Assembly (NCBI GenBank): GCA_964373795.1
Contig: CAYJVY010000005.1
Location: forward strand, 16,257 to 23,745
DNA length: 7,489 nucleotides
From: an uncultured archaeon
GTDB lineage: Archaea; Iainarchaeota; Iainarchaeia; Iainarchaeales; DATDZZ01
Direction: 5' to 3'
In this document: positions 1 to 7,489 of the stretch, piece by piece
Layout: every line of letters starts with the position of its first letter
Position numbering within the stretch: the stretch's first letter is position 1
The notes under the pieces: model-generated
Databases searched by the model: none
What the model was told of the DNA's origin: nothing
What the model saw: the letters and a program-made list of their open reading frames with translations, nothing else
Translations under genes and position numbers: made by a program

Positions 1-54
1 GCTTCAGTCAAACAGCAAACGCAACTAATTAATATCAAATTGCACATTATTTAA
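1..54 (+). CDS. 3' end of an upstream gene entering from the left edge (last 17 codons, ...ASVKQQTQLINIKLHII, stop TAA 52-54). Product unknown.
   Basis: Frame 1 is open from base 1 to TAA at 52-54. The stop lies 3 nt before the ATG of the next gene, an operon-like junction. Too short to assign a function or to prove it is coding. Confidence 0.35.
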   Translation, partial: ASVKQQTQLINIKLHII

Positions 55-57
55 TGC

Positions 58-1539
58 ATGTTGAATGAAAGAGCTTTCACTTTATTCACTGCATTGATTT
101 CATTTATTTTAATTGCTTTAACAATGCTGTTAATTTCAAGCATGACTGCTACCTCTACGAATACTGAAAACATTATTGCTTCAATTGAAGAGCAAACAAA
201 AATGCAGGCATTAGCTGATTTAGCTAGAGCAGATGCAGTGCAAACATTTAATTATGGAGTGAGAAGAAGATTTGAAGAATATTTTTTAGGTGAAAGCAGG
301 GTAACAATTACTAGAGGGCAAACCTGGGAAGACATTAAGAAAGAGTTTGCTAGAACTTTTTTTGCTTCAGAGCCTTCAACTGAAAACCCTTATGGAGTAA
401 GAGCTTTTGCAGATAATGCTACTGCATACATTGAAGACATTTTAAGTAATTCTCCTGCAATTCCAGGATTTACTGTTACTTTAACTAAAGGAGCTACAAA
501 AGAATTAAACGATGTATTGCAAAAATCTGTTTTAAAATCTTTAAGTGATCCGTCAAAAAAATTTTTTGAAGTAGTTGAATGTGAAGGAATAATAAGTAAC
601 TGCGTTATTGGAACTTTTTTTGTAAACCTGGATTTAAGTGAAGTAACAGATAAAGAATATGAAAAACTTCCTCAAATAAGGGTTGAAAATGATTCAACTG
701 GCCGCGTTATAAAAGAACCAATTCTGCCTAGAACTAATTACAGAATTTATTTTCCAATAAGAATTTTTAAAGCAATTGCAATTGGAAGAACAATTTCAGA
801 TCCTGGAACAGGGTTATTAAGTTCTGGATTGAAGACTCAAATTGAAAGCTATGGAATAGGTTTCTGTGATCCAAATCAATGCTCTCCAAGAAATGAAATT
901 TTGCCAGGCAAGCTTTCAACAAAAGTAGGCCTTTGCCCTGGAGACAGTGGAGCAAGTACTTTAGTAAATTTTGCAAATGAAACAATTGACCCAATTCCTT
1001 TTACAACAGGGTATCATTCTTCAATTAAAGAATATAGAGCTACAAGCTTGGATAGTGGGCAACCAGTTTTAAGAGACAAGATTTTGGAAAAAATTTGCAC
1101 TCATGCAACTACTTCAATTCCTTCTCTAAGCGGGCATAACGTTGAATTAATTGGAACAAAATGTGGAGGAAAAATTCAAGACATTTCATTAATACTTGAA
1201 CAACAAGAAACAGTTACAGTTAAAGGAGAACTAGAAATAACTGCAGGAGCAATTCCTTCTTTTGGAGGAAGCTCAGCAACTCCTGGAACAACTACTAGAG
1301 GGCCTTATACCTTGAATTGTTTAAAGCCATCCAAGATGGAGATAACTTTTCTTGTAAGAGAAAAAGACAAAAAATACATGGTGAATGAAAGAAATTATTC
1401 AACCAATCCATTAGCTGGATTTAAGATTGAAATTCAAGACAAGTATACTCCTTCAAGCACTAAATGGAATTGTCTTTCAAAATGCACTAAATCAGATATT
1501 TCTCCAGGATGCCAAGTGAAAACTTGTAATCCGATTTAA
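58..1539 (+). CDS. Secreted cysteine-rich protein with a type IV pilin-like (class III signal peptide) N-terminus. Putative large minor or tip pilin-like surface protein.
   Basis: 493-codon ORF from the track. The N-terminus MLNER-A|FTLFTALISFILIALTMLLISS has a short charged leader, R at -2 and A at -1, then F plus about 22 hydrophobic residues, which is the prepilin-peptidase substrate layout. All 12 Cys lie after the helix, including the C-terminal cluster WNCLSKCTKSDISPGCQVKTC. It carries N-x-S/T sequons (NAT, NDS, NET, NYS). There is no SD upstream; the ATG sits 3 nt after the upstream stop, suggesting translational coupling. Coding status is strong; the functional call is inference. Confidence 0.8.
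   Translation: MLNERAFTLFTALISFILIALTMLLISSMTATSTNTENIIASIEEQTKMQALADLARADAVQTFNYGVRRRFEEYFLGESRVTITRGQTWEDIKKEFARTFFASEPSTENPYGVRAFADNATAYIEDILSNSPAIPGFTVTLTKGATKELNDVLQKSVLKSLSDPSKKFFEVVECEGIISNCVIGTFFVNLDLSEVTDKEYEKLPQIRVENDSTGRVIKEPILPRTNYRIYFPIRIFKAIAIGRTISDPGTGLLSSGLKTQIESYGIGFCDPNQCSPRNEILPGKLSTKVGLCPGDSGASTLVNFANETIDPIPFTTGYHSSIKEYRATSLDSGQPVLRDKILEKICTHATTSIPSLSGHNVELIGTKCGGKIQDISLILEQQETVTVKGELEITAGAIPSFGGSSATPGTTTRGPYTLNCLKPSKMEITFLVREKDKKYMVNERNYSTNPLAGFKIEIQDKYTPSSTKWNCLSKCTKSDISPGCQVKTCNPI
76..141 (+). other. N-terminal hydrophobic helix of the 58-1539 product (FTLFTALISFILIALTMLLISS), the predicted class III or prepilin-type signal core.
   Basis: An uninterrupted run of about 22 hydrophobic residues directly after the ER-A motif, read from the translation. 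Confidence 0.55.
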
Positions 1540-1545
1540 ACTTCC

Positions 1546-1562
1546 TGTATAATACAATGTAT
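1546..1562. promoter_or_regulatory. Three-arm palindrome TGTAT-a-ATACA-a-TGTAT. Candidate operator for the RHH antitoxin.
   Basis: Read directly: TGTAT (1546-1550), ATACA (1552-1556) and TGTAT (1558-1562). Adjacent arms are perfect inverted repeats with 1-nt spacers, placed immediately upstream of the TATA-like box. RHH antitoxins classically autoregulate through such repeats (established knowledge). The assignment here is inference. Confidence 0.35.
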
Positions 1563-1566
1563 ACTA

Positions 1567-1574
1567 TTTATATT
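1567..1574 (+). promoter_or_regulatory. TATA-box-like element TTTATATT upstream of the toxin-antitoxin pair.
   Basis: AT-rich octamer close to the archaeal TATA consensus, about 40 nt upstream of ATG 1614. A bacterial-type TATAAT also occurs at 1548-1553. AT-rich spacers produce such matches by chance. Confidence 0.3.
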
Positions 1575-1601
1575 GTTAGATGACTATTAAATAGATATTG
1601 A

Positions 1602-1606
1602 GGTGA
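1602..1606 (+). promoter_or_regulatory. Shine-Dalgarno GGTGA for the antitoxin gene.
   Basis: GGTGA lies 7 nt upstream of ATG 1614. The same GTGA core precedes 1855 (4 nt spacing), 2167 (5 nt) and 2336 (6 nt). Confidence 0.55.
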
Positions 1607-1613
1607 ACATTAA

Positions 1614-1850
1614 ATGAACATAAATCTTGGAGAACCATACAACGTAATAATAAAAAAAATTATTGAAGATGGTTATGCCGGAAATTATACAGAAGTAATT
1701 AGGCAATCTTTGCTAGCCTATGAGAAAATGCTTAAAGAAGAAGAAGTTAATCTTGTAAATAAAGGCATTGAAACTGAAATGCAAGAAATTAAATCTAAGC
1801 AAATAAAAACAAAAACTTTGGAACAATTGAAAAAGAAATACAAGCTGTGA
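1614..1850 (+). CDS. Type II antitoxin, ribbon-helix-helix (ParD/CopG-like).
   Basis: 78 aa. The N-terminus MNINLGEPYNVIIKKIIEDGYAGNYTEVIRQSLLAYEK fits the strand-helix-helix pattern of ParD-type RHH antitoxins, with the G-Y-x-x-x-x-E-V-I-R-x-x-L signature. The C-terminal tail is long and K/E-rich. It has an SD, and its stop lies 4 nt before the toxin ATG. Confidence 0.7.
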   Translation: MNINLGEPYNVIIKKIIEDGYAGNYTEVIRQSLLAYEKMLKEEEVNLVNKGIETEMQEIKSKQIKTKTLEQLKKKYKL

Positions 1851-1854
1851 TTTA

Positions 1855-2115
1855 ATGCAAGTAATTTTTTCAGAAAAAGCAGAAAAAGAATTGGATAAAA
1901 TGGATCATTTGTTTAGAAAGCTTTTTTTTAAGAATATTGAAAAAATTAAAGAGTTTCTTCCAAGAAGACATTTAAGATTTGGTTTGCCATTCAACGTTGA
2001 AGAAGTAACAAAACAAGCACGGATTGTTTACCAAATAGAAGAAAACAAACTATTTATACTCCATTGCTTTGATACTCACAAAGAATATGAAAAATGGTAT
2101 AAATCATTTAAGTAA
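1855..2115 (+). CDS. Type II toxin, RelE/ParE superfamily.
   Basis: 86 aa. MQVIFSEKAEKELDKM... followed by ...ARIVYQIEENKLFILHCFDTHKEYEKWY matches the family pattern (x-I-x-F-S-x-x-A-x-K-x-L near the N-terminus; R-I-[IV]-Y-x-I-x-x-x-x-[IL]-x-I-L-x-x-x-x-H-[KR]-x-x-Y near the C-terminus). Size and position directly after an RHH gene are typical. It ends with tandem in-frame stops TAA CTC TAA (2113-2121). Confidence 0.75.
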   Translation: MQVIFSEKAEKELDKMDHLFRKLFFKNIEKIKEFLPRRHLRFGLPFNVEEVTKQARIVYQIEENKLFILHCFDTHKEYEKWYKSFK

Positions 2116-2126
2116 CTCTAAATCAC

Positions 2127-2250
2127 AGATTGTGGCAAACAGTCTCGCGTGGTTAACGTGAAAACAATGCAAGTCATGCATTTAAATGAAGATCTTGCGC
2201 TTGCCAAGCCCAAGGCGTTTTACACTCGCCTGATTGGCAGGATAGGAATA
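2127..2250. other. G+C-rich island in the spacer. Candidate structured RNA, leader, or relic of foreign sequence.
   Basis: Hand count: 55 G+C in 2131-2250 (46%) and 28 of 50 in 2191-2240 (56%), against 17 of 80 (21%) in 2251-2330. It contains competing hairpins built on the segment CCAAGGCG (2210-2217). No tRNA T-loop or rRNA-like motif was recognised. Confidence 0.3.
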
Positions 2251-2319
2251 GGTTTATATATAAAATACCCTTTAAATTATTATATTAAAGACTTAAGAGT
2301 TAACTCTATAATTAAATGA
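2167..2319 (+). CDS. Possible 50-aa small ORF (MQVMHLNEDLALAKPKAFYTRLIGRIGIGLYIKYPLNYYIKDLRVNSIIK). Hypothetical.
   Basis: Below the track's size cutoff. ATG 2167 is preceded by GTGA (2158-2161) at 5-nt spacing, like the other genes here. The start context AATGCAAGT is identical over 9 nt to that of the toxin gene at 1854-1862. Against it: it is short, its composition changes abruptly midway, and it would overlap the TATA-like box of the giant gene. Confidence 0.2.
   Translation: MQVMHLNEDLALAKPKAFYTRLIGRIGIGLYIKYPLNYYIKDLRVNSIIK
2198..2221 (+). terminator. Hairpin followed by T4. Possible terminator of the toxin-antitoxin transcript.
   Basis: CGCTTG (2198-2203) pairs with CAA(G)GCG (2211-2217), with one bulged G and the loop CCAAGCC, followed by TTTT (2218-2221). 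The stem is short and only four T follow. Confidence 0.25.
2253..2265 (+). promoter_or_regulatory. TATA-box-like element TTTATATATAAAA upstream of the giant gene.
   Basis: A match to the archaeal TATA consensus (TTTATATA), preceded by the purine-rich GGAATAGG (BRE-like), about 75 nt upstream of TTG 2336. Chance matches are common in AT-rich DNA. Confidence 0.35.
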
Positions 2320-2324
2320 AGTGA

Positions 2325-2329
2325 AGTGA
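2325..2329 (+). promoter_or_regulatory. Shine-Dalgarno AGTGA for the giant gene.
   Basis: The GTGA core lies 6 nt upstream of TTG 2336, with the same motif and spacing class as in front of 1614 and 1855. Confidence 0.45.
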
Positions 2330-2335
2330 GCTTAT

Positions 2336-5300
2336 TTGAGTTTTTTTGAAGATTTAGAAGATAGGTTTTGGAAGTTACTAGAAGACTTGCAAGATAAAGG
2401 AATTCCTTTAATTAAACTCGCGTATTTTTTAGATGATAGAAAAATTCCTGCAATGCCGGTTTTTGCTTTAATTACATTATTAGTTCTTAGTGTATTAGGA
2501 TTTGGAGTTTATAATTTATTTCTTCAACCACAAGCAAGTGTTACTTTAACTGTTTTAGGCGTTGAATCAAAGCCTTTAGATTCAGTTGAAGTAAAATTAA
2601 AAGTAAACGATGAATTAAAAACCTTGCAAACAAAGGATGGAAAGATTCAATTAAATGTTCCAATTGGGGCAAAGCTTTCAATTGAAATTGAAAAAGAAGG
2701 ATATGAAAAAAAAGAAAAAAGTTTTACAGTTGATGAAGTAAAATTTGAGCAAACACTTACTTTATTGCCTGTTTCAGCAACTATTTCTAAAACAATTAAA
2801 TTAGTGAATGCAGATAAATCTTTATTTGATAAAAGTGTTACTGCTTCTTTTAGTTGTAGTAATAATACTGGTTTTTCTAAAAGCGAAATAGTTGAAAAAG
2901 GAGAAGTAAAACTAGACAACATTCCAAGCGATTGTGGAAATTTATCTGTTTTTGTAGAAAAATTTAATGTTAAAAGTAATTCAATTAATTTAGATGAAAA
3001 AGGCGCTGCTCAAATAGTTGTAGAGCAAGTGAAAAAAGATTTTGGAAAAGTAAGAGTTGAAGTAAAAAAGGATTCAGGAGAAGCATTGTCAGGAATTAGT
3101 GTAGAACTATACACTTCTCAGAGAATGGCTTATACTAGAGGAATTACTACTCAAGATGGAACAGTTGTATTTGAAAACGTTGAAGTAGATAATTATTACG
3201 TTGTTGCATCAGATGGAAGTGGAGAGTTTTTAACATTTGATGGAAGTGCAAATAAAAAAGATGTATTAAAGGATCAAACAACTTCTTTCACTGCAACAAT
3301 GAAGAAAGGAGTTAAAGGAGAAGTAAAACTTAAAGTAATTAATAAGCAAACTTCTTTGCCTGTTGCAAACGCAATTATAACTTTATTGAAAGCAGATGGA
3401 TCAAAGCATTCCGAACCAAAACAAAGCGATGCAGAGGGAAAGGTTTCATTCAATGTTCCAGATGCAGCTTCATATAAAGCAGTAGTAGATCATCCTGATT
3501 ACTTGTTTCAAGAAAAAGGAGATTTAAGAAAAACAGAGTTAGATGAATTTACTTTAATTCCTGTAACAGAAGCAACAGCTGATAATAGGAAAAGCTTGCT
3601 TGTAAGAGTTTTAGATGAAAAAGGATTACCAGTTGATGCAGTGAAAACAGTTCTTCAAACAGGGGATGGAACTCCTCTTGGATTGGAAAAAATTACTGGA
3701 GCAGATGGAATTGTTTCATTTGGAAACTTGAAGGAAGGAGAATACTTAATTTTTGCAGTTAAAACAGGGTTTAAAGGAGTGTTAAGTCAAAAAGTGCAAG
3801 TAAAGGATAGAAAAGTTAATACTTTAGATGTAAAAATTTCTTTAGGAACTGGAACAGTTGAATTAACTGTTTTAGATGAAGATAATCAACCTATTTCAGG
3901 AGCAACTGTAACTTTATTTGATTATTTTACTGATGAACAACTTGAAAAAGAAAAATTAGTTGACTCTCAGGGAAAGGTTTCATTCACTGTAAGAGCTGAT
4001 AAAAAAATTTATTTAAAGGCTTCAGCAAACAATTTCTTAAACTATGTAACAATTCCATTACAATTAGCTAATAATGTTACAATTAAAAAAGAAATTAAAT
4101 TAGTTGACGATGTTCCAAGCGTTGAAGCAAAACTAGTTGGATTATTTGTTTCAACTCAAGAAGGAGATCAAGAAGTAAAAGATTCTTTAAATTCTGGAGA
4201 CAAATACAAGGTTAGACTTCAAGTAATTACTCCAAAAAATAGTTCTTTTGAAGAAATAGGTTTACATGTTAGAACAGGAAAACAAGAAGAAAATAAAACA
4301 AATATAATGGAAGCAGATCCTTTATTCATTAAAGAAGTTTTCAGTTCTGCTTCTCAAATAAGAAAAGGAACTAGTTTTACTCCTTCACTAGGGTTTTCAA
4401 ACGATGCAACTCATTTAACAAGCGGAGCAGCTAAATGGATTAATTCTACTTGGAGAAAACCTTTAGCAGGAGTATATGAATTGGAAGCAGAGATTCAAGT
4501 AAACAAAGTAGAAGCAAGAGATGACTTGAAATTATATTATAGAGCATGGGGTAAAAGCGGAAGCTATGTAAGAGATCCAGCAGACAAAGAATTAGGCAAT
4601 GCAGCTAATACTGCTAAAAAACAAGAATTATATGCTCATTCAAAGGAAAAAACTTATTCAGTTGGAGTAGCATCAAATGTATGCGTAAGAGAATTTTGCA
4701 GTAGTTTAACAATTGAAGACTTGTTTTCAAATCTTGAAACAGGAATAGTAGACCAATACAGTGCAAAAATTACAAACAATTACAAGTTAAGATTTAATTT
4801 AGTTAATAGTTCTACTTCAACTTTTAGTGGATTAAAATTCAAGGTATTCAATGAATTAGGAGGAGTAGAACTTCAAAACTATAAAATTGAAGTGCAAGGA
4901 AAAGAGCTTTTAGGAAACGCGGAAAATAATGAAATTAATTTAGATGTATTAAAGTTAACTGGAGACGAACCAATTTCAGGAGAAATTAATTTCAAAACCT
5001 CAAAGGATGGACAGTCAAAGATTGTAATGCAATTAATTTCTGGCAGAGACACTTTATTTGAAAAACAAGTATTAGTTGATGTAAGCCCTGCGCAAACACT
5101 TAAAGTAGAAGTAGTGCCAAAAGCAGTTGTTCCATTCATTAACAATCAATTTGTATTCAAAGTAACAAAACCAGAAGATAATTCTGCTATTCCAAATGCA
5201 TTAATTAGATTAATGTTAAATGAAACACTTGTAGTAACAGGGAATACTAATTCAAGAGGAGAATTTGAATACACTTTAACTGCGCCTTCAAGTGGTGCAA

Positions 5301-7489
5301 AGCTTTCAATTGAAGTAGAAAAAAATGGATTCCAAAAAGTAAAAAAAGTAATGAATGTAGCAGAAGAAATTCTGGATATAAATCCATTAAACATTGTTGA
5401 AACATTAATTGTAAGCGGAATAGAAGCAAAAACAAATGGTTTAACTATATTCAATGACACTGAAATTCCTTTAAAAATATCAAAGGTTGATGCAACAGGG
5501 GATTTCACTGGATTAGTTAAAGTAGAATTTAGAGAGAATTTAATTGACTTGGTTTTAAATCCTAAAAGAGATTATAATTTCCAATTAGATTTAGGTTTAA
5601 CAAGTAAGGGAAAAGAAGTAAGCCAACCTCAAAGACTGCAAGGAAAAATTGATTTACATTTAACTAATGAAGCATTTAATAAGACTTGGATTAATTCAAT
5701 TCCAGTTGAAGTAAAAATTGCTTTTGGTTCTGCAATAGATCAAAAAGATTGTTTAACAGTAAATCCATTGAATTGGAATGTGTTTACAAGCAATGAAGTT
5801 AAAACATTAGATGTTGCAGTGAAAAACTCTTGTGAAGTGCAAGGCAAGCCAGTTGACTTGCAAGGACTAGAAGTAAAAATTAATAGAGGAAATGAAAACG
5901 AATTAGGAGCATTCAAGTTAAGAGATGAATTAACTGAAAAAGAAGTAACCTTAACAAATGTATTCCAAAAAATTTCAACTCTATTAAAACATAACGCAGA
6001 CAATGTTTACACTATTAGGTTTGAACCAAAAGAAGTAACTTCTTCAACCTCAGAGCCAAAAATTATTTTCAGAGCAACTCATAGAACAGCTAACGGAGAC
6101 GAAGTAATTGAAAAACTAGTGAAAGTAAAAGTTGAAATAAATGATTTAATTAAATGTGTTGAAGTAAAGGATACAGGAAAATTATTAGTTGAATCTTGTC
6201 CATACAATACAGGGTTTTCAGCTGCAAGATTCAGTGTTCCAATTCAAGGAGCCTTACCAGAACATGTTTTAACTAGTGGAACTCTTTCCTCGGATAGAGT
6301 TTCATTGCTTCAAAATAGGAATCCAATATTTCCTAACCTTGATTACACTGGAAGATTATTTGATTCATATAATCAAAACCCTGCAGCTGCAGGAATCTTT
6401 GCATGCCAAGACACTCAATTCAGAATTGAAAACAATTGTTCAAGCATTGTTTCAGTTGATTTAGCTCAAGACTCTGCATTAAATGTAGCTGAAAGCGCGT
6501 TTGATATAGAGCCAGGAAAAGACAAAGTAGTAACAATTGGGCAAAGCTATAAAATGGGAACTTATAAAGTTAGAGTGCAAGCAAAAATTAAAGGAGCAAA
6601 TCAAGCAAGTCAAGAAATTAAAACTCTTTCAGTAAGCGTTAAAAGCTCTAGTCAAGCAACAGCTAATTGTATTAAGTTAAGTGATCCAGGAGACGGAGTA
6701 TTCAGATTTAATGATTTATTCCAAAAACCTGTAAGAGGAGTTTTAACAAATGAATGTGTTGCATCAGGAGTATACTTGTATAAAAATTCTTTAGATACTT
6801 CAAGTTTAGTGAGTTATACAGGGCAACAAATGCAAATGGCTTCAAGACTAATAACTGAAGGAGATCCAGATCCTACTACAAGATTTGATGGAAAAGAAAT
6901 TCAAGAACTAAAATTCAGGGTTGAAAAAAATTTATTTTACAAAAAAGCAGATTCATTAAATCAATTAAAAGAAGCTAGAGGCCCATTAGATTTAGTTACA
7001 GGAGTAAGAGCTGTTCTAGCTCAAGGATATGTAACAGTAAACGAAGCAGGATATTTAAAAGTAAATTACACTGATGGCTTTTCTCAATCAAAATCAAAAG
7101 AAATTAATGTAACATTCCAAGACTATTTTAGGTCAACTGAATTCCTTGAAACACAGTATGGAAGCACTAAATGGACTACAGCAGCTGACTTGCAAGCTCA
7201 TTGTTTAAGGCCATTATATTTAGGAACTTTAACTGACACTGACTTTGGAAACACTGACACTATTACTAAACGTCCTGCAGATGACTTAGTAATAGTTGGA
7301 GCAGAAGCATGTGGATCAACAGATGGTTTAAGTAATTTAAAAGTTAATCCAAACATGTTACGCGAATTAAGCGAGAAAGGATTGGATTTAAGTTTTAGAA
7401 TAACTGGTGGAAGGCTAACTGGAAGAAACCAAACAATTGAAGCAGTAATAACTAGAACAGATAAATTTGTTGAACCATTAACAATTGAT
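2336..7489 (+). CDS. Giant signal-anchored surface protein, truncated at the 3' window edge (at least 1,718 aa). Multi-domain CarboxypepD_reg/PEGA-like adhesin-like protein.
   Basis: Not in the supplied track. Hand translation of frame 2 shows no stop from the TGA at 2327-2329 to base 7489. The frame was re-checked against coordinates at 2582, 3002, 4022, 5042, 6002, 7022 and 7487. TTG 2336 is the only canonical alternative start (ATG/GTG/TTG) close behind the SD-like AGTGA; the first in-frame ATG is 2453, which would begin inside the TM helix. The translation starts (M)SFFEDLEDRFWKLLEDLQDKGIPLIKLAYFLDDRKIPAMPVFALITLLVLSVLGFGVYNLF. It is K/E/V/T-rich throughout, with alternating beta-strand-like patterns. 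There are 14 Cys, in seven local pairs. There are at least 14 N-x-S/T sequons. Confidence 0.9.
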   Translation, partial: MSFFEDLEDRFWKLLEDLQDKGIPLIKLAYFLDDRKIPAMPVFALITLLVLSVLGFGVYNLFLQPQASVTLTVLGVESKPLDSVEVKLKVNDELKTLQTKDGKIQLNVPIGAKLSIEIEKEGYEKKEKSFTVDEVKFEQTLTLLPVSATISKTIKLVNADKSLFDKSVTASFSCSNNTGFSKSEIVEKGEVKLDNIPSDCGNLSVFVEKFNVKSNSINLDEKGAAQIVVEQVKKDFGKVRVEVKKDSGEALSGISVELYTSQRMAYTRGITTQDGTVVFENVEVDNYYVVASDGSGEFLTFDGSANKKDVLKDQTTSFTATMKKGVKGEVKLKVINKQTSLPVANAIITLLKADGSKHSEPKQSDAEGKVSFNVPDAASYKAVVDHPDYLFQEKGDLRKTELDEFTLIPVTEATADNRKSLLVRVLDEKGLPVDAVKTVLQTGDGTPLGLEKITGADGIVSFGNLKEGEYLIFAVKTGFKGVLSQKVQVKDRKVNTLDVKISLGTGTVELTVLDEDNQPISGATVTLFDYFTDEQLEKEKLVDSQGKVSFTVRADKKIYLKASANNFLNYVTIPLQLANNVTIKKEIKLVDDVPSVEAKLVGLFVSTQEGDQEVKDSLNSGDKYKVRLQVITPKNSSFEEIGLHVRTGKQEENKTNIMEADPLFIKEVFSSASQIRKGTSFTPSLGFSNDATHLTSGAAKWINSTWRKPLAGVYELEAEIQVNKVEARDDLKLYYRAWGKSGSYVRDPADKELGNAANTAKKQELYAHSKEKTYSVGVASNVCVREFCSSLTIEDLFSNLETGIVDQYSAKITNNYKLRFNLVNSSTSTFSGLKFKVFNELGGVELQNYKIEVQGKELLGNAENNEINLDVLKLTGDEPISGEINFKTSKDGQSKIVMQLISGRDTLFEKQVLVDVSPAQTLKVEVVPKAVVPFINNQFVFKVTKPEDNSAIPNALIRLMLNETLVVTGNTNSRGEFEYTLTAPSSGAKLSIEVEKNGFQKVKKVMNVAEEILDINPLNIVETLIVSGIEAKTNGLTIFNDTEIPLKISKVDATGDFTGLVKVEFRENLIDLVLNPKRDYNFQLDLGLTSKGKEVSQPQRLQGKIDLHLTNEAFNKTWINSIPVEVKIAFGSAIDQKDCLTVNPLNWNVFTSNEVKTLDVAVKNSCEVQGKPVDLQGLEVKINRGNENELGAFKLRDELTEKEVTLTNVFQKISTLLKHNADNVYTIRFEPKEVTSSTSEPKIIFRATHRTANGDEVIEKLVKVKVEINDLIKCVEVKDTGKLLVESCPYNTGFSAARFSVPIQGALPEHVLTSGTLSSDRVSLLQNRNPIFPNLDYTGRLFDSYNQNPAAAGIFACQDTQFRIENNCSSIVSVDLAQDSALNVAESAFDIEPGKDKVVTIGQSYKMGTYKVRVQAKIKGANQASQEIKTLSVSVKSSSQATANCIKLSDPGDGVFRFNDLFQKPVRGVLTNECVASGVYLYKNSLDTSSLVSYTGQQMQMASRLITEGDPDPTTRFDGKEIQELKFRVEKNLFYKKADSLNQLKEARGPLDLVTGVRAVLAQGYVTVNEAGYLKVNYTDGFSQSKSKEINVTFQDYFRSTEFLETQYGSTKWTTAADLQAHCLRPLYLGTLTDTDFGNTDTITKRPADDLVIVGAEACGSTDGLSNLKVNPNMLRELSEKGLDLSFRITGGRLTGRNQTIEAVITRTDKFVEPLTID
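2453..2521 (+). other. Single transmembrane helix (signal anchor) of the giant protein.
   Basis: MPVFALITLLVLSVLGFGVYNLF is 23 mostly hydrophobic residues preceded by DDRK (positive-inside). Everything downstream is hydrophilic beta-type sequence with paired Cys and sequons, consistent with an extracellular location. Confidence 0.7.
2540..4105 (+). repeat. Six tandem protein modules of about 80-88 aa, of the carboxypeptidase-regulatory-like / PEGA-like (transthyretin-type beta-sandwich) kind.
   Basis: Approximate module boundaries: 2540-2770, 2771-3028, 3044-3307, 3317-3565, 3590-3847 and 3851-4105. They share a recurrent pattern. One example is GTVELTVLDEDNQPISGATVTL...DSQGKVSFTV. Another is LLVRVLDEKGLPVDAVKTVLQTGDG...TGADGIVSFGNLKEGEYLIFAVKTGF, which is the CarboxypepD_reg signature (strand, small residue plus V-x-L, D-G-x-x-x-F, G-x-Y). 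The repeats are at protein level. DNA identity is limited to an 18-nt match, 3435-3452 = 3969-3986, encoding the GKVSF motif. Confidence 0.7.
4106..5098 (+). other. Central region of the giant protein (about 330 aa) with no family I can name.
   Basis: Starts DDVPSVEAKLVGLFVSTQEGDQEVKDSLNSGDKYKVRLQVITPKNSSFEEIGLHVRTG and includes AAKWINSTWRKPLAGVYELEAEIQV, LKLYYRAWGKSGSYVRDPADKELG and the close Cys pair VCVREFC (4682-4699). It looks beta-rich but does not follow the module pattern on either side. Confidence 0.4.
5099..5359 (+). repeat. Seventh, displaced CarboxypepD_reg/PEGA-like module.
   Basis: LKVEVVPKAVVPFINNQFVFKVTKPEDNSAIPNALIRLMLNETLVVTGNTNSRGEFEYTLTAPSSGAKLSIEVEKNGFQKVKKVMNV. It shares GAKLSIE(I/V)EK(E/N)G(Y/F) with module 1 and an exact 18-nt DNA match, 2669-2686 = 5297-5314. 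Confidence 0.6.
5360..7489 (+). other. Distal region of the giant protein: beta-type modules each bracketed by a cysteine pair. Family unassigned; continues past the window.
   Basis: Cys codon pairs at 5750/5831, 6155/6197, 6404/6437, 6668/6755 and 7202/7310. In three pairs the second Cys sits in a hydrophobic-x-N-x-C motif (VKNSC, IENNC, LTNEC) followed by a beta-strand-like run. This resembles the strand-N-x-G layout of CARDB-type sandwiches, but with Cys in place of Gly. Confidence 0.45.

Follow-up and report, generated by a model that had tools for sequence, protein, structure and literature searches.

The window analysed here is a stretch of 7,489 nt from an uncultured archaeon of the GTDB lineage Iainarchaeota (assembly GCA_964373795.1, contig CAYJVY010000005.1, positions 16,257 to 23,745 of the forward strand). 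Most of it is taken up by an open reading frame (ORF) of 1,718 codons, which begins at position 2336 of the plus strand and runs off the 3' end of the window. This ORF is a real protein-coding gene, of which we see the 5' part, about 70% of the full length. It lies behind a gene for a pilin-like protein, from which it is separated by two small genes resembling a toxin-antitoxin pair. Its product has a single N-terminal membrane helix followed by a long series of beta-sandwich domains, and it belongs to a family of giant archaeal proteins whose genes stand four in a row.

Machine translation of 2336–7489 gave 1,718 codons and not one stop. The frame is open from 2330, directly behind an in-frame TGA at 2327–2329, and the five other frames of the same segment contain 194, 198, 175, 59 and 114 stops. 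From the base composition, the probability of 1,718 codons without a stop is about 9e-70. The G+C content of the three codon positions (45/34/15%) gives a strong coding signal. The initial annotation, made from the letters of the window, had described frame 2 of the plus strand as stop-free from 2330 to the window end and had put the absence of the giant from the ORF list down to the lack of a stop inside the window. Both statements are borne out, the ORF being missing because the list leaves out ORFs that run off an end. The list was also said to show only short antisense ORFs across the region; one short plus-strand ORF in another frame (6276–6464) has to be added. Open-ended ORFs at contig ends can conceal the main gene of a window.

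The start codon can be fixed as well. Between the stop at 2327–2329 and the N-terminal motif of the family, which begins at residue 3, TTG 2336 is the sole ATG, GTG or TTG. A hidden Markov model (HMM) built from 19 other proteins, with the window sequence excluded, matched residues 3–50 with 34.4 bits (E=7e-13). Because the conserved motif begins there, translation must start at or before residue 3, and only TTG 2336 is possible. The gene caller on a Logan contig of the same region independently picked this codon. The TTG start suggested in the initial annotation is right. The AGTGA noted there, 6 nt before the start, also fits: GGTGA or AGTGA motifs are found 4–8 nt before the starts of homologous giants in six related loci (L001, L003, L004, L007, L011 and L013, in our numbering), and a motif of this type also precedes the window gene at 1614.

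A chimeric assembly had been named as a possible source of error, but nothing pointed to a misjoin. A Logan contig from ERR3478686 corresponds to window 1–5586 with 99.93% identity and one from ERR4904391 to window 2–2310, so two independent assemblies agree with the contig. The remainder, 5587–7489, is collinear with homologues up to the last residues, and invariant residues persist to the end. All three assemblies stop at one base, window position 1, 57 nt before the pilin-like gene. The ends of two loci in our collection, L005 and L006, coincide with the same position. The shared break was probably induced by a repeat or paralogue just upstream, because related loci have a giant paralogue (type A, see below) at that place; giant paralogous genes are places where short-read assemblies break. 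An exact 50-mer from the window end had no match in genome contigs or metagenome contigs, and look-ups of the exact proteins of the three upstream genes led only to Logan contigs shorter than the window. The exact 493-aa pilin-like protein (P0021, window 58–1536) is also recorded on a 102,258-bp NCBI contig, and for this reason the complete giant gene may be present in public data. There were no matches that would support a phage or plasmid origin, and the window contains no tRNA and no member of an Rfam family.

The organization of the giant ORF is given below. Pfam scores were judged against the gathering threshold (GA) of the model, structures are AlphaFold2 (AF2) models with their predicted local distance difference test scores (pLDDT), and fold matches were obtained with Foldseek.

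2325–2329, plus strand: Shine-Dalgarno-like AGTGA, 6 nt before the TTG, overlapping the upstream in-frame TGA
2336–7489, plus strand: giant ORF, 5' part, type-B member of the four-paralogue locus; TTG start, 1,718 codons, no stop
2336–2485, plus strand: N-terminal motif of about 50 aa, FFEDLEDRFWKLLEDLQDKGIPLIKLAYFLDDRKIPAMP..., detected by HMM; predicted to be cytoplasmic up to the membrane helix
2456–2524, plus strand: single transmembrane helix, aa ~41–63, PVFALITLLVLSVLGFGVYNLFL, putative signal anchor (Kyte-Doolittle)
2534–4105, plus strand: transthyretin-like/CarboxypepD_reg array of immunoglobulin (Ig)-like domains, aa 67–590 (Pfam)
4106–5380, plus strand: family signature module, three predicted beta-sandwiches, aa 591–1015 (AF2, profile)
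5381–6205, plus strand: two more predicted beta-sandwiches, aa 1016–1290 (AF2, pLDDT mostly 80–92)
6206–6403, plus strand: variable linker predicted to be disordered, aa ~1289–1356, rich in Y/N/Q/S/G (AF2, pLDDT 26–43)
6404–6655, plus strand: further predicted beta-sandwich, aa ~1357–1440 (AF2, pLDDT 78–90)
6656–7489, plus strand: conserved region of uncertain mixed alpha/beta fold, aa 1441–1718 (AF2, pLDDT mostly <60), cut by the window end

Of the 140 family representatives with an initial M, 123 have the N-terminal motif (consensus LEDKYY.FLD.L..KGIPVY..vD.iE..nIPSFP) at residues 1–57, and it occurs in all four types of giant (A to D). No Pfam model covers it (aa 1–40). We rejected the idea that the giant carries a class III signal, which calls for a conserved G or A at position -1 before the hydrophobic helix: in front of I-P-S-F-P the family members have G, N, K, S, R or V, and the window has K. 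The helix at aa ~41–63 is the only Kyte-Doolittle hydrophobic segment in the 1,718 aa; exactly one transmembrane (TM)-like segment was likewise found in 92 of 110 full-length relatives, in most of them starting at aa 30–50. In the array that follows, PF13620 scored 109.6 bits (GA 32.3) with five stretches within aa ~70–590, and SpaA, SdrD_B and Ig_DR_A0283-like models were also above GA in aa 67–590. The PF13620 match defines a domain, not a function.

The signature module is marked by the invariants H..R.G, KW, YR.W, R.P, LYA and C....C, every one of which is present in the window ORF. Its AF2 model is all-beta with a mean pLDDT of 83.5, and the fold matches are generic tandem Ig folds of adhesins and macroglobulin (MG)-type folds (PrgB, AgI/II, the MG domains of E. 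coli alpha-2-macroglobulin (A2M), integrin). A second model, which includes the two sandwiches at aa 1016–1290, matched ciliary central-apparatus chains, the CfaB pilin, the SPD-2 domain of CEP192 and PrgB, all of which we take to be ASH/PapD-like Ig folds. The linker (aa ~1289–1356) varies in length among homologues and appears as a gap-rich, low-complexity stretch in the alignment. In the sandwich behind it, Cys1368 is invariant and an NNC-type motif is conserved in the consensus. The region from aa 1441 to 1718 gave no Pfam match and no PDB sequence match; R1558, D1596 and G1609 are invariant there, and conserved columns continue up to the end of the ORF. The ORF encodes 14 Cys, eight of them at invariant columns. 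A Pfam scan detected no enzyme domain in the giant ORF or in 15 full-length relatives, and a search by sequence for relatives of solved structure brought up nothing beyond weak Ig-domain matches.

Judging from these models, the ectodomain should comprise at least 11 Ig-like beta-sandwich domains, the linker and a region of lower confidence. The initial annotation had classed the protein as a membrane-anchored beta-sandwich giant with domain repeats. The scan of the full translation against profiles, the single hydrophobic helix at aa ~41–63 and the all-beta AF2 sandwich models agree with that class. The repeats exist at the level of profile and structure (five CarboxypepD_reg stretches, sandwich domains) but not at that of sequence, where self-BLASTP of the giant ORF found no internal protein repeats at E<0.01. 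DNA tandem repeats were not found either.

A word-indexed protein search with the full-length query returned six true relatives of 2,392–2,763 aa, with 22–32% identity and E values down to 1e-255. The family is far larger, as an exhaustive profile search with the module at aa 591–1015 yielded at least 433 clusters (50% identity) at E<=1e-30; the best 150 clusters all had E<1e-79. Most members are 2,300–2,800 aa long (median 2,431 aa), and the signature module sits nearly always at about aa 590–1020 of proteins of about 2,400 aa. Against these lengths, the window ORF amounts to about 70% of a full-length member, and about 700–1,000 C-terminal residues are absent. The full-length members have a conserved C-terminal region, which ends in a C...L.W-N motif. 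The best reciprocal relatives of the window giant are the type-B genes L015_10001, L007_9974 and L003_805. Two other word-indexed searches returned little: the alignment of the N-terminal motif found only 15 short contig-end fragments, and another alignment found no relatives, probably because words from the low-complexity linker swamped the candidates.

The only taxon names attached to the relatives are Candidatus Iainarchaeum, Diapherotrites, Micrarchaeota or plain 'archaeon'. The source of the giant gene is a small-genome, DPANN-type archaeon, and the names are in line with the reduced-genome symbiont that had been proposed as its host. In the databases the relatives go by the names 'carboxypeptidase regulatory-like domain-containing protein' or 'hypothetical protein'. 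As a sequence the gene is not new, for public databases already contain the family under a generic domain name. The N-terminal motif could serve as a marker for a family that is now labelled by a generic domain only.

An all-against-all comparison of the related loci revealed four orthologous types of giant in a fixed order: giant A (~2,500–2,900 aa), a pilin-like protein (~490–630 aa), giant B, a small protein with four TM segments (~160 aa), giant C and giant D. By sequence comparison we assign the window giant to paralogue B, the second of the four. The locus spans about 33 kb, and ten or more independent loci keep its gene order. Its six products total 11,102 aa on one JGI contig of 1.19 Mb, which is about 2.8% of that contig.

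Some details of the individual genes vary or stand out. The small membrane protein after giant B (~155–170 aa; L003 9108–9575, L004 860–1345, L012 7403–7909, L015 17708–18187) shows, by eye, about four hydrophobic stretches and a common YAG...G motif, and has no family match; it is expected just past the 3' end of the window. The type-A giants (L013 506–8671, which is P0006, and L001 621–8066) have a C-terminus unlike that of type B. In the one from L001, additional hydrophobic stretches can be seen by eye in the later part of the protein, and the extreme C-terminus of P0006 weakly matches the SLT lytic transglycosylases (18 bits, GA 21.3), which hints at a cell-wall-cutting tip on one paralogue. 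In L004 the type-C giant is represented by two neighbouring ORFs, 1484–7006 and 7023–9974 (1,840 + 983 aa), for which a sequencing error, a frameshift or a genuinely divided gene could account.

When the N-terminal part of type A was used as scan query, ten more loci were obtained. A FlaI/TadA-type ATPase is encoded within 10 kb upstream in L016, L018 and L019, with PF00437 scores of 48–70 bits (GA 24.9). Those of L018 and L019, the two that were scanned against NCBIfam, scored 138–150 bits to the FlaI model. The ATPase of L016 (2452–6231, minus strand) reaches 1,258 aa because of an intein with a LAGLIDADG homing-endonuclease domain. A TadC/T2SSF-like protein of 755–825 aa, scoring just under GA, is found upstream in L016 and L022, and small upstream proteins with class-III-like N-termini in L018 and L022. 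The link between the locus and pilus genes is frequent, not universal.

Directly upstream of giant A, L002/L008, L016, L017, L018 and L022 carry a gene of the mini-exosortase/archaeosortase family (164–178 aa; L002 1–528, L016 9030–9524, L017 1351–1875, L018 6245–6781, L022 7531–8064). Its products share an invariant Cys (in YLCTG), Arg (FN..RI) and His (HD..FR). The locus proteins showed no obvious C-terminal sorting signal. In L022, a 582-aa LVIVD-repeat protein (8110–9858, 139 bits) is encoded between the mini-exosortase and giant A.

In the window, three genes precede the giant.

58–1539, plus strand: gene of the 493-aa Cys-rich pilin-like partner, with a prepilin-type (class III-like) N-terminus, MLNERA/FTLFTALISFILIALTMLL
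1614–1850, plus strand: RHH/ParD-like antitoxin candidate, 78 aa (TIGR02606 22.7 bits, cut-off 46.2; Pfam ParD/RHH_8 weak)
1855–2115, plus strand: ParE/RelE-fold toxin candidate, 86 aa (Pfam ParE_toxin 18.8 bits, GA 23; Gp49 and HigB weak)

The N-terminus of the partner, MLNERA/FTLFTALISFILIAL (the slash marks the predicted cleavage point), consists of a short charged start, a [KR]-[GA] site and a hydrophobic helix of about 20 aa. The pattern [KR][GA]-F-[TN]-LFTAL and the hydrophobic helix are near-invariant in four aligned partner homologues. The protein has one hydrophobic segment (aa 4–34) and 12 Cys. Its only model match, to the ComGF minor pilin, is weak, with 17.7–18.8 bits where the cut-off is 80; fast divergence is a known property of pilin sequences (PMC4858521). 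Homologues of 490–630 aa lie directly upstream of the orthologous giant in L001, L007, L011, L013, L015, L016, L020, L021, L022 and L024 (E=1e-60 for the comparison with L001). The window giant follows the partner gene with only the toxin-antitoxin-like pair between them, and at least ten loci show the same order. L022 has two tandem large pilin-like genes (18791–21895; 553 + 477 aa) between giants A and B.

The two small genes are separated by 4 nt from antitoxin stop to toxin start, and their sizes and spacing fit a toxin-antitoxin pair, both matches being below thresholds. None of the related loci has an insertion, ParD/ParE-like or other, between the pilin-like gene and the giant. The spacer between the putative toxin gene and the giant (2116–2335, 220 nt) has a patch at about 2120–2250 that is more G+C-rich than its AT-rich surroundings; an unsupported 56-aa ORF (2149–2319) overlaps this patch. 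The spacer folds somewhat better than shuffled sequences (z=-2.5), no Rfam family matched it, and TATA-like AT-rich strings are present at 2253–2260 and 2280–2287. It could be a promoter, a leader or a remnant of the toxin-antitoxin insertion.

These observations establish the reality of the gene, its start codon, the membrane anchor, the class of fold, the size of the family and the synteny. We think, with moderate confidence, that the product is a surface protein which in full would have roughly 2,500 residues and which is one of four giants in an attachment system linked to pili. The N-terminal motif of about 40 residues would remain in the cytoplasm, and residues ~41–63 form the single membrane helix, which would act as an uncleaved signal anchor. 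The remainder, about 2,400 residues in full-length relatives, would lie outside the cell. Stabilised by disulphides, this long string would consist of at least 11 Ig-like domains together with a flexible linker and the conserved part at the C-terminus. The motif common to the four giants may anchor them in the membrane, and on the surface of the cell they would assemble into long fibrils or into a hetero-complex. The pilin-like partner could enter a type-IV-pilus-like filament through its N-terminal helix and in this way connect the giants to the filament, and the whole assembly might be used for attaching to surfaces or to host cells. Cell attachment or host contact, in keeping with the cell-cell contact named in the initial annotation, is a reasonable candidate function, to which the genomic context points. 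Pilus-linked attachment proteins of this kind would agree with the large accessory proteins published for archaeal pilus loci: large accessory surface proteins that are adhesin-like or S-layer-like occur in the type IV pilus loci of archaea (PMC4858521), and for those of DPANN archaea 'specific surface proteins' have been noted (PMC6393860).

Several points weigh against this interpretation. L020 and L024 have neither pilus-type genes nor the mini-exosortase within 10 kb upstream. The window itself contains no pilus-machinery genes; an ATPase or TadC gene is not visible in it because the contig ends at position 1. The pilin-like partner has no Pfam match and reaches no curated pilin model above threshold. 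We infer an N-in/C-out topology of the giant because it has one helix, at the N-terminus, and an Ig ectodomain rich in Cys; the bias of charges next to the helix does not decide the matter, and N-glycosylation sequons are not enriched (14 observed, 15 expected). The window lacks about 30% of the protein, and with it the conserved C-terminal region; this missing part is without a recognisable fold, and the closest relative retrieved is only 32% identical. In the searchable literature, which is incomplete, we found no experiments or expression data on any member of the family.

Other explanations have to be weighed against pilus-linked fibrils. One of them is an artefact, that is, a chimeric assembly or a decayed pseudogene that is open by accident. 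The contig does terminate within the gene, and the break of two further assemblies at position 1 indicates a region that is hard to assemble. However, with an open-frame chance of about 1e-69, a strong codon-position signal, two independent assemblies that are concordant over 1–5586, and collinear homology whose invariant residues reach the last codons, an artefact seems extremely unlikely. A structural role in the envelope is possible, though in our opinion rather unlikely. The four giants would then form an outer coat, as an S-layer substitute or a spacer canopy, and the pilus genes would be an unrelated neighbourhood, as the absence of nearby pilus genes in L020 and L024 would allow. The locus is conserved, seemingly single-copy and very large (the ~11,102 aa, or ~2.8%, of the 1.19-Mb contig), one anchor motif is common to all four types, and the SbsB S-layer protein is among the fold matches. 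Moreover, architecture and length are uniform over the 433 clusters, which is more reminiscent of a housekeeping component than of a fast-evolving adhesin. In the known S-layer proteins of archaea, a Sec signal is usually cleaved off and an anchor or PGF-CTERM is found at the C-terminus, whereas the anchor is N-terminal here and the C-termini of the homologues have neither a TM segment nor a basic tail. At least 11 Ig domains and a disordered linker suggest a long flexible fibril and not a lattice, and the pilin-like gene embedded in the locus also argues against a mere coat.

The recurrent mini-exosortase gene raises another possibility, namely that the giants are its substrates and that 'IPSFP + TM helix' is a new type of N-terminal sorting signal, which would be cleaved or anchor-swapped. 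The gene adjoins giant A in L002/L008, L016, L017, L018 and L022, the catalytic triad is intact (Cys, Arg and His are invariant), and P-[SA]-F-P, which resembles PGF, stands directly before the helix in all four giant types. However, known exosortase signals are located at the C-terminus and present their motif on the outer face, while the motif here would be on the cytoplasmic face of an N-terminal anchor. A C-terminus of the PGF-CTERM/PEP-CTERM type (motif, TM segment, basic tail) is absent in the inspected full-length type-B relatives, which end soluble. As the window has no exosortase gene and adjacency alone is weak evidence, we consider this explanation improbable. The fold matches to E. 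coli A2M, CD109 and complement C3/C5 bring to mind a membrane-anchored A2M-like protease trap, and the N-terminal anchor and the disordered, 'bait-like' linker resemble the A2M layout. The weak Pfam matches to bMG3 (33.9 bits) and MG4 (22.6 bits) are under GA (34.9 and 24.7), though, and MG domains are generic sandwiches, so that the fold matches are uninformative. Any CxEQ is present in only six of 110 full-length relatives, which means that there is no conserved thioester, and 15 full-length members gave no thioester-domain or A2M match in Pfam. With its MG matches sub-threshold and the thioester not conserved, the A2M identity was rejected, and the chance that the giant is such a trap appears negligible.

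The preferred reading, surface fibrils tied to a pilus-like system, can be extended to a DPANN-wide surface apparatus of Iainarchaeota and Micrarchaeota that attaches to or penetrates host cells. Its parts would be four giants with a cytoplasmic docking motif, a pilin-like adaptor, the protein with four TM segments, the mini-exosortase and a FlaI/TadC-type motor, with 'IPSFP-TM' possibly being a new N-terminal sorting signal. We regard this extension as unlikely, and mention it as a speculation. Outside Nanohaloarchaeota, there are few molecular candidates for the attachment of DPANN archaea to their hosts and for the exploitation of these hosts, and the locus provides a concrete, testable candidate for an attachment apparatus of Iainarchaeota and Micrarchaeota. 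We found no description of the family or the locus in the literature, the coverage of which is incomplete. The N-terminal motif, the fixed four-paralogue locus with its pilin-like partner and the mini-exosortase link appear to be undescribed; giant Ig-rich surface proteins and large accessory proteins of archaeal pilus loci are known kinds.

Comparison with known systems places the giant among several types of surface protein. It is most similar to the unnamed DPANN family represented by MDD5148124.1, MFH1255676.1, MFH0954801.1 and MBI4052687.1, with which it shares the N-terminal motif, the single TM helix, the CarboxypepD_reg array and the module position. It is collinear with these proteins at 22–32% identity and has the same synteny behind a pilin-like gene. 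The window copy differs in being truncated to about 70%, in its TTG start, in the ParD/ParE-like insertion and in its low identity (at most 32%) to any retrieved member.

The bacterial fibrillar adhesins (PrgB, antigen I/II, SdrD, SpaA-type pilins) are also projecting strings of Ig-like and transthyretin-like sandwiches. They provide the top fold matches of the giant, and the SpaA and SdrD_B models of Pfam are above GA. In contrast to them, the giant is archaeal and has an N-terminal TM anchor, not an LPXTG/sortase or type I secretion system arrangement, and its domains are divergent, without repeats at the sequence level. The SPEARE giants of Nanohaloarchaeota, which Hamm and colleagues are said to have described in 2019, are likewise surface proteins of a DPANN lineage with a proposed function in host interaction. 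They are reportedly defined by serine-protease, adhesion and restriction-endonuclease domains. Unlike them, the giant ORF and 15 full-length relatives have no Pfam match to a protease or nuclease, serine-protease and restriction-endonuclease domains included.

A further parallel is provided by archaeal type IV pili, whose loci encode accessory proteins (Makarova et al. 2016, PMC4858521; for DPANN, PMC6393860). These are large, extracellular, Cys-rich and beta-rich, and are encoded beside a FlaI/TadA-type ATPase, TadC and diverse pilins. The giant and its relatives resemble them in size, in being rich in Cys and beta structure, in their predicted place outside the cell and, in several related loci, in such neighbours. 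The accessory proteins have been proposed to be adhesins, minor pilins or S-layer-like parts (PMC4858521, PMC6393860). However, each of those described is a large protein on its own and carries a signal peptide, a DUF2341 domain or a C-terminal TM segment, whereas in the locus described here four paralogues, each about 2,500 aa long, follow one another in a fixed order and have in common an N-terminal motif predicted to be cytoplasmic and a putative signal anchor.

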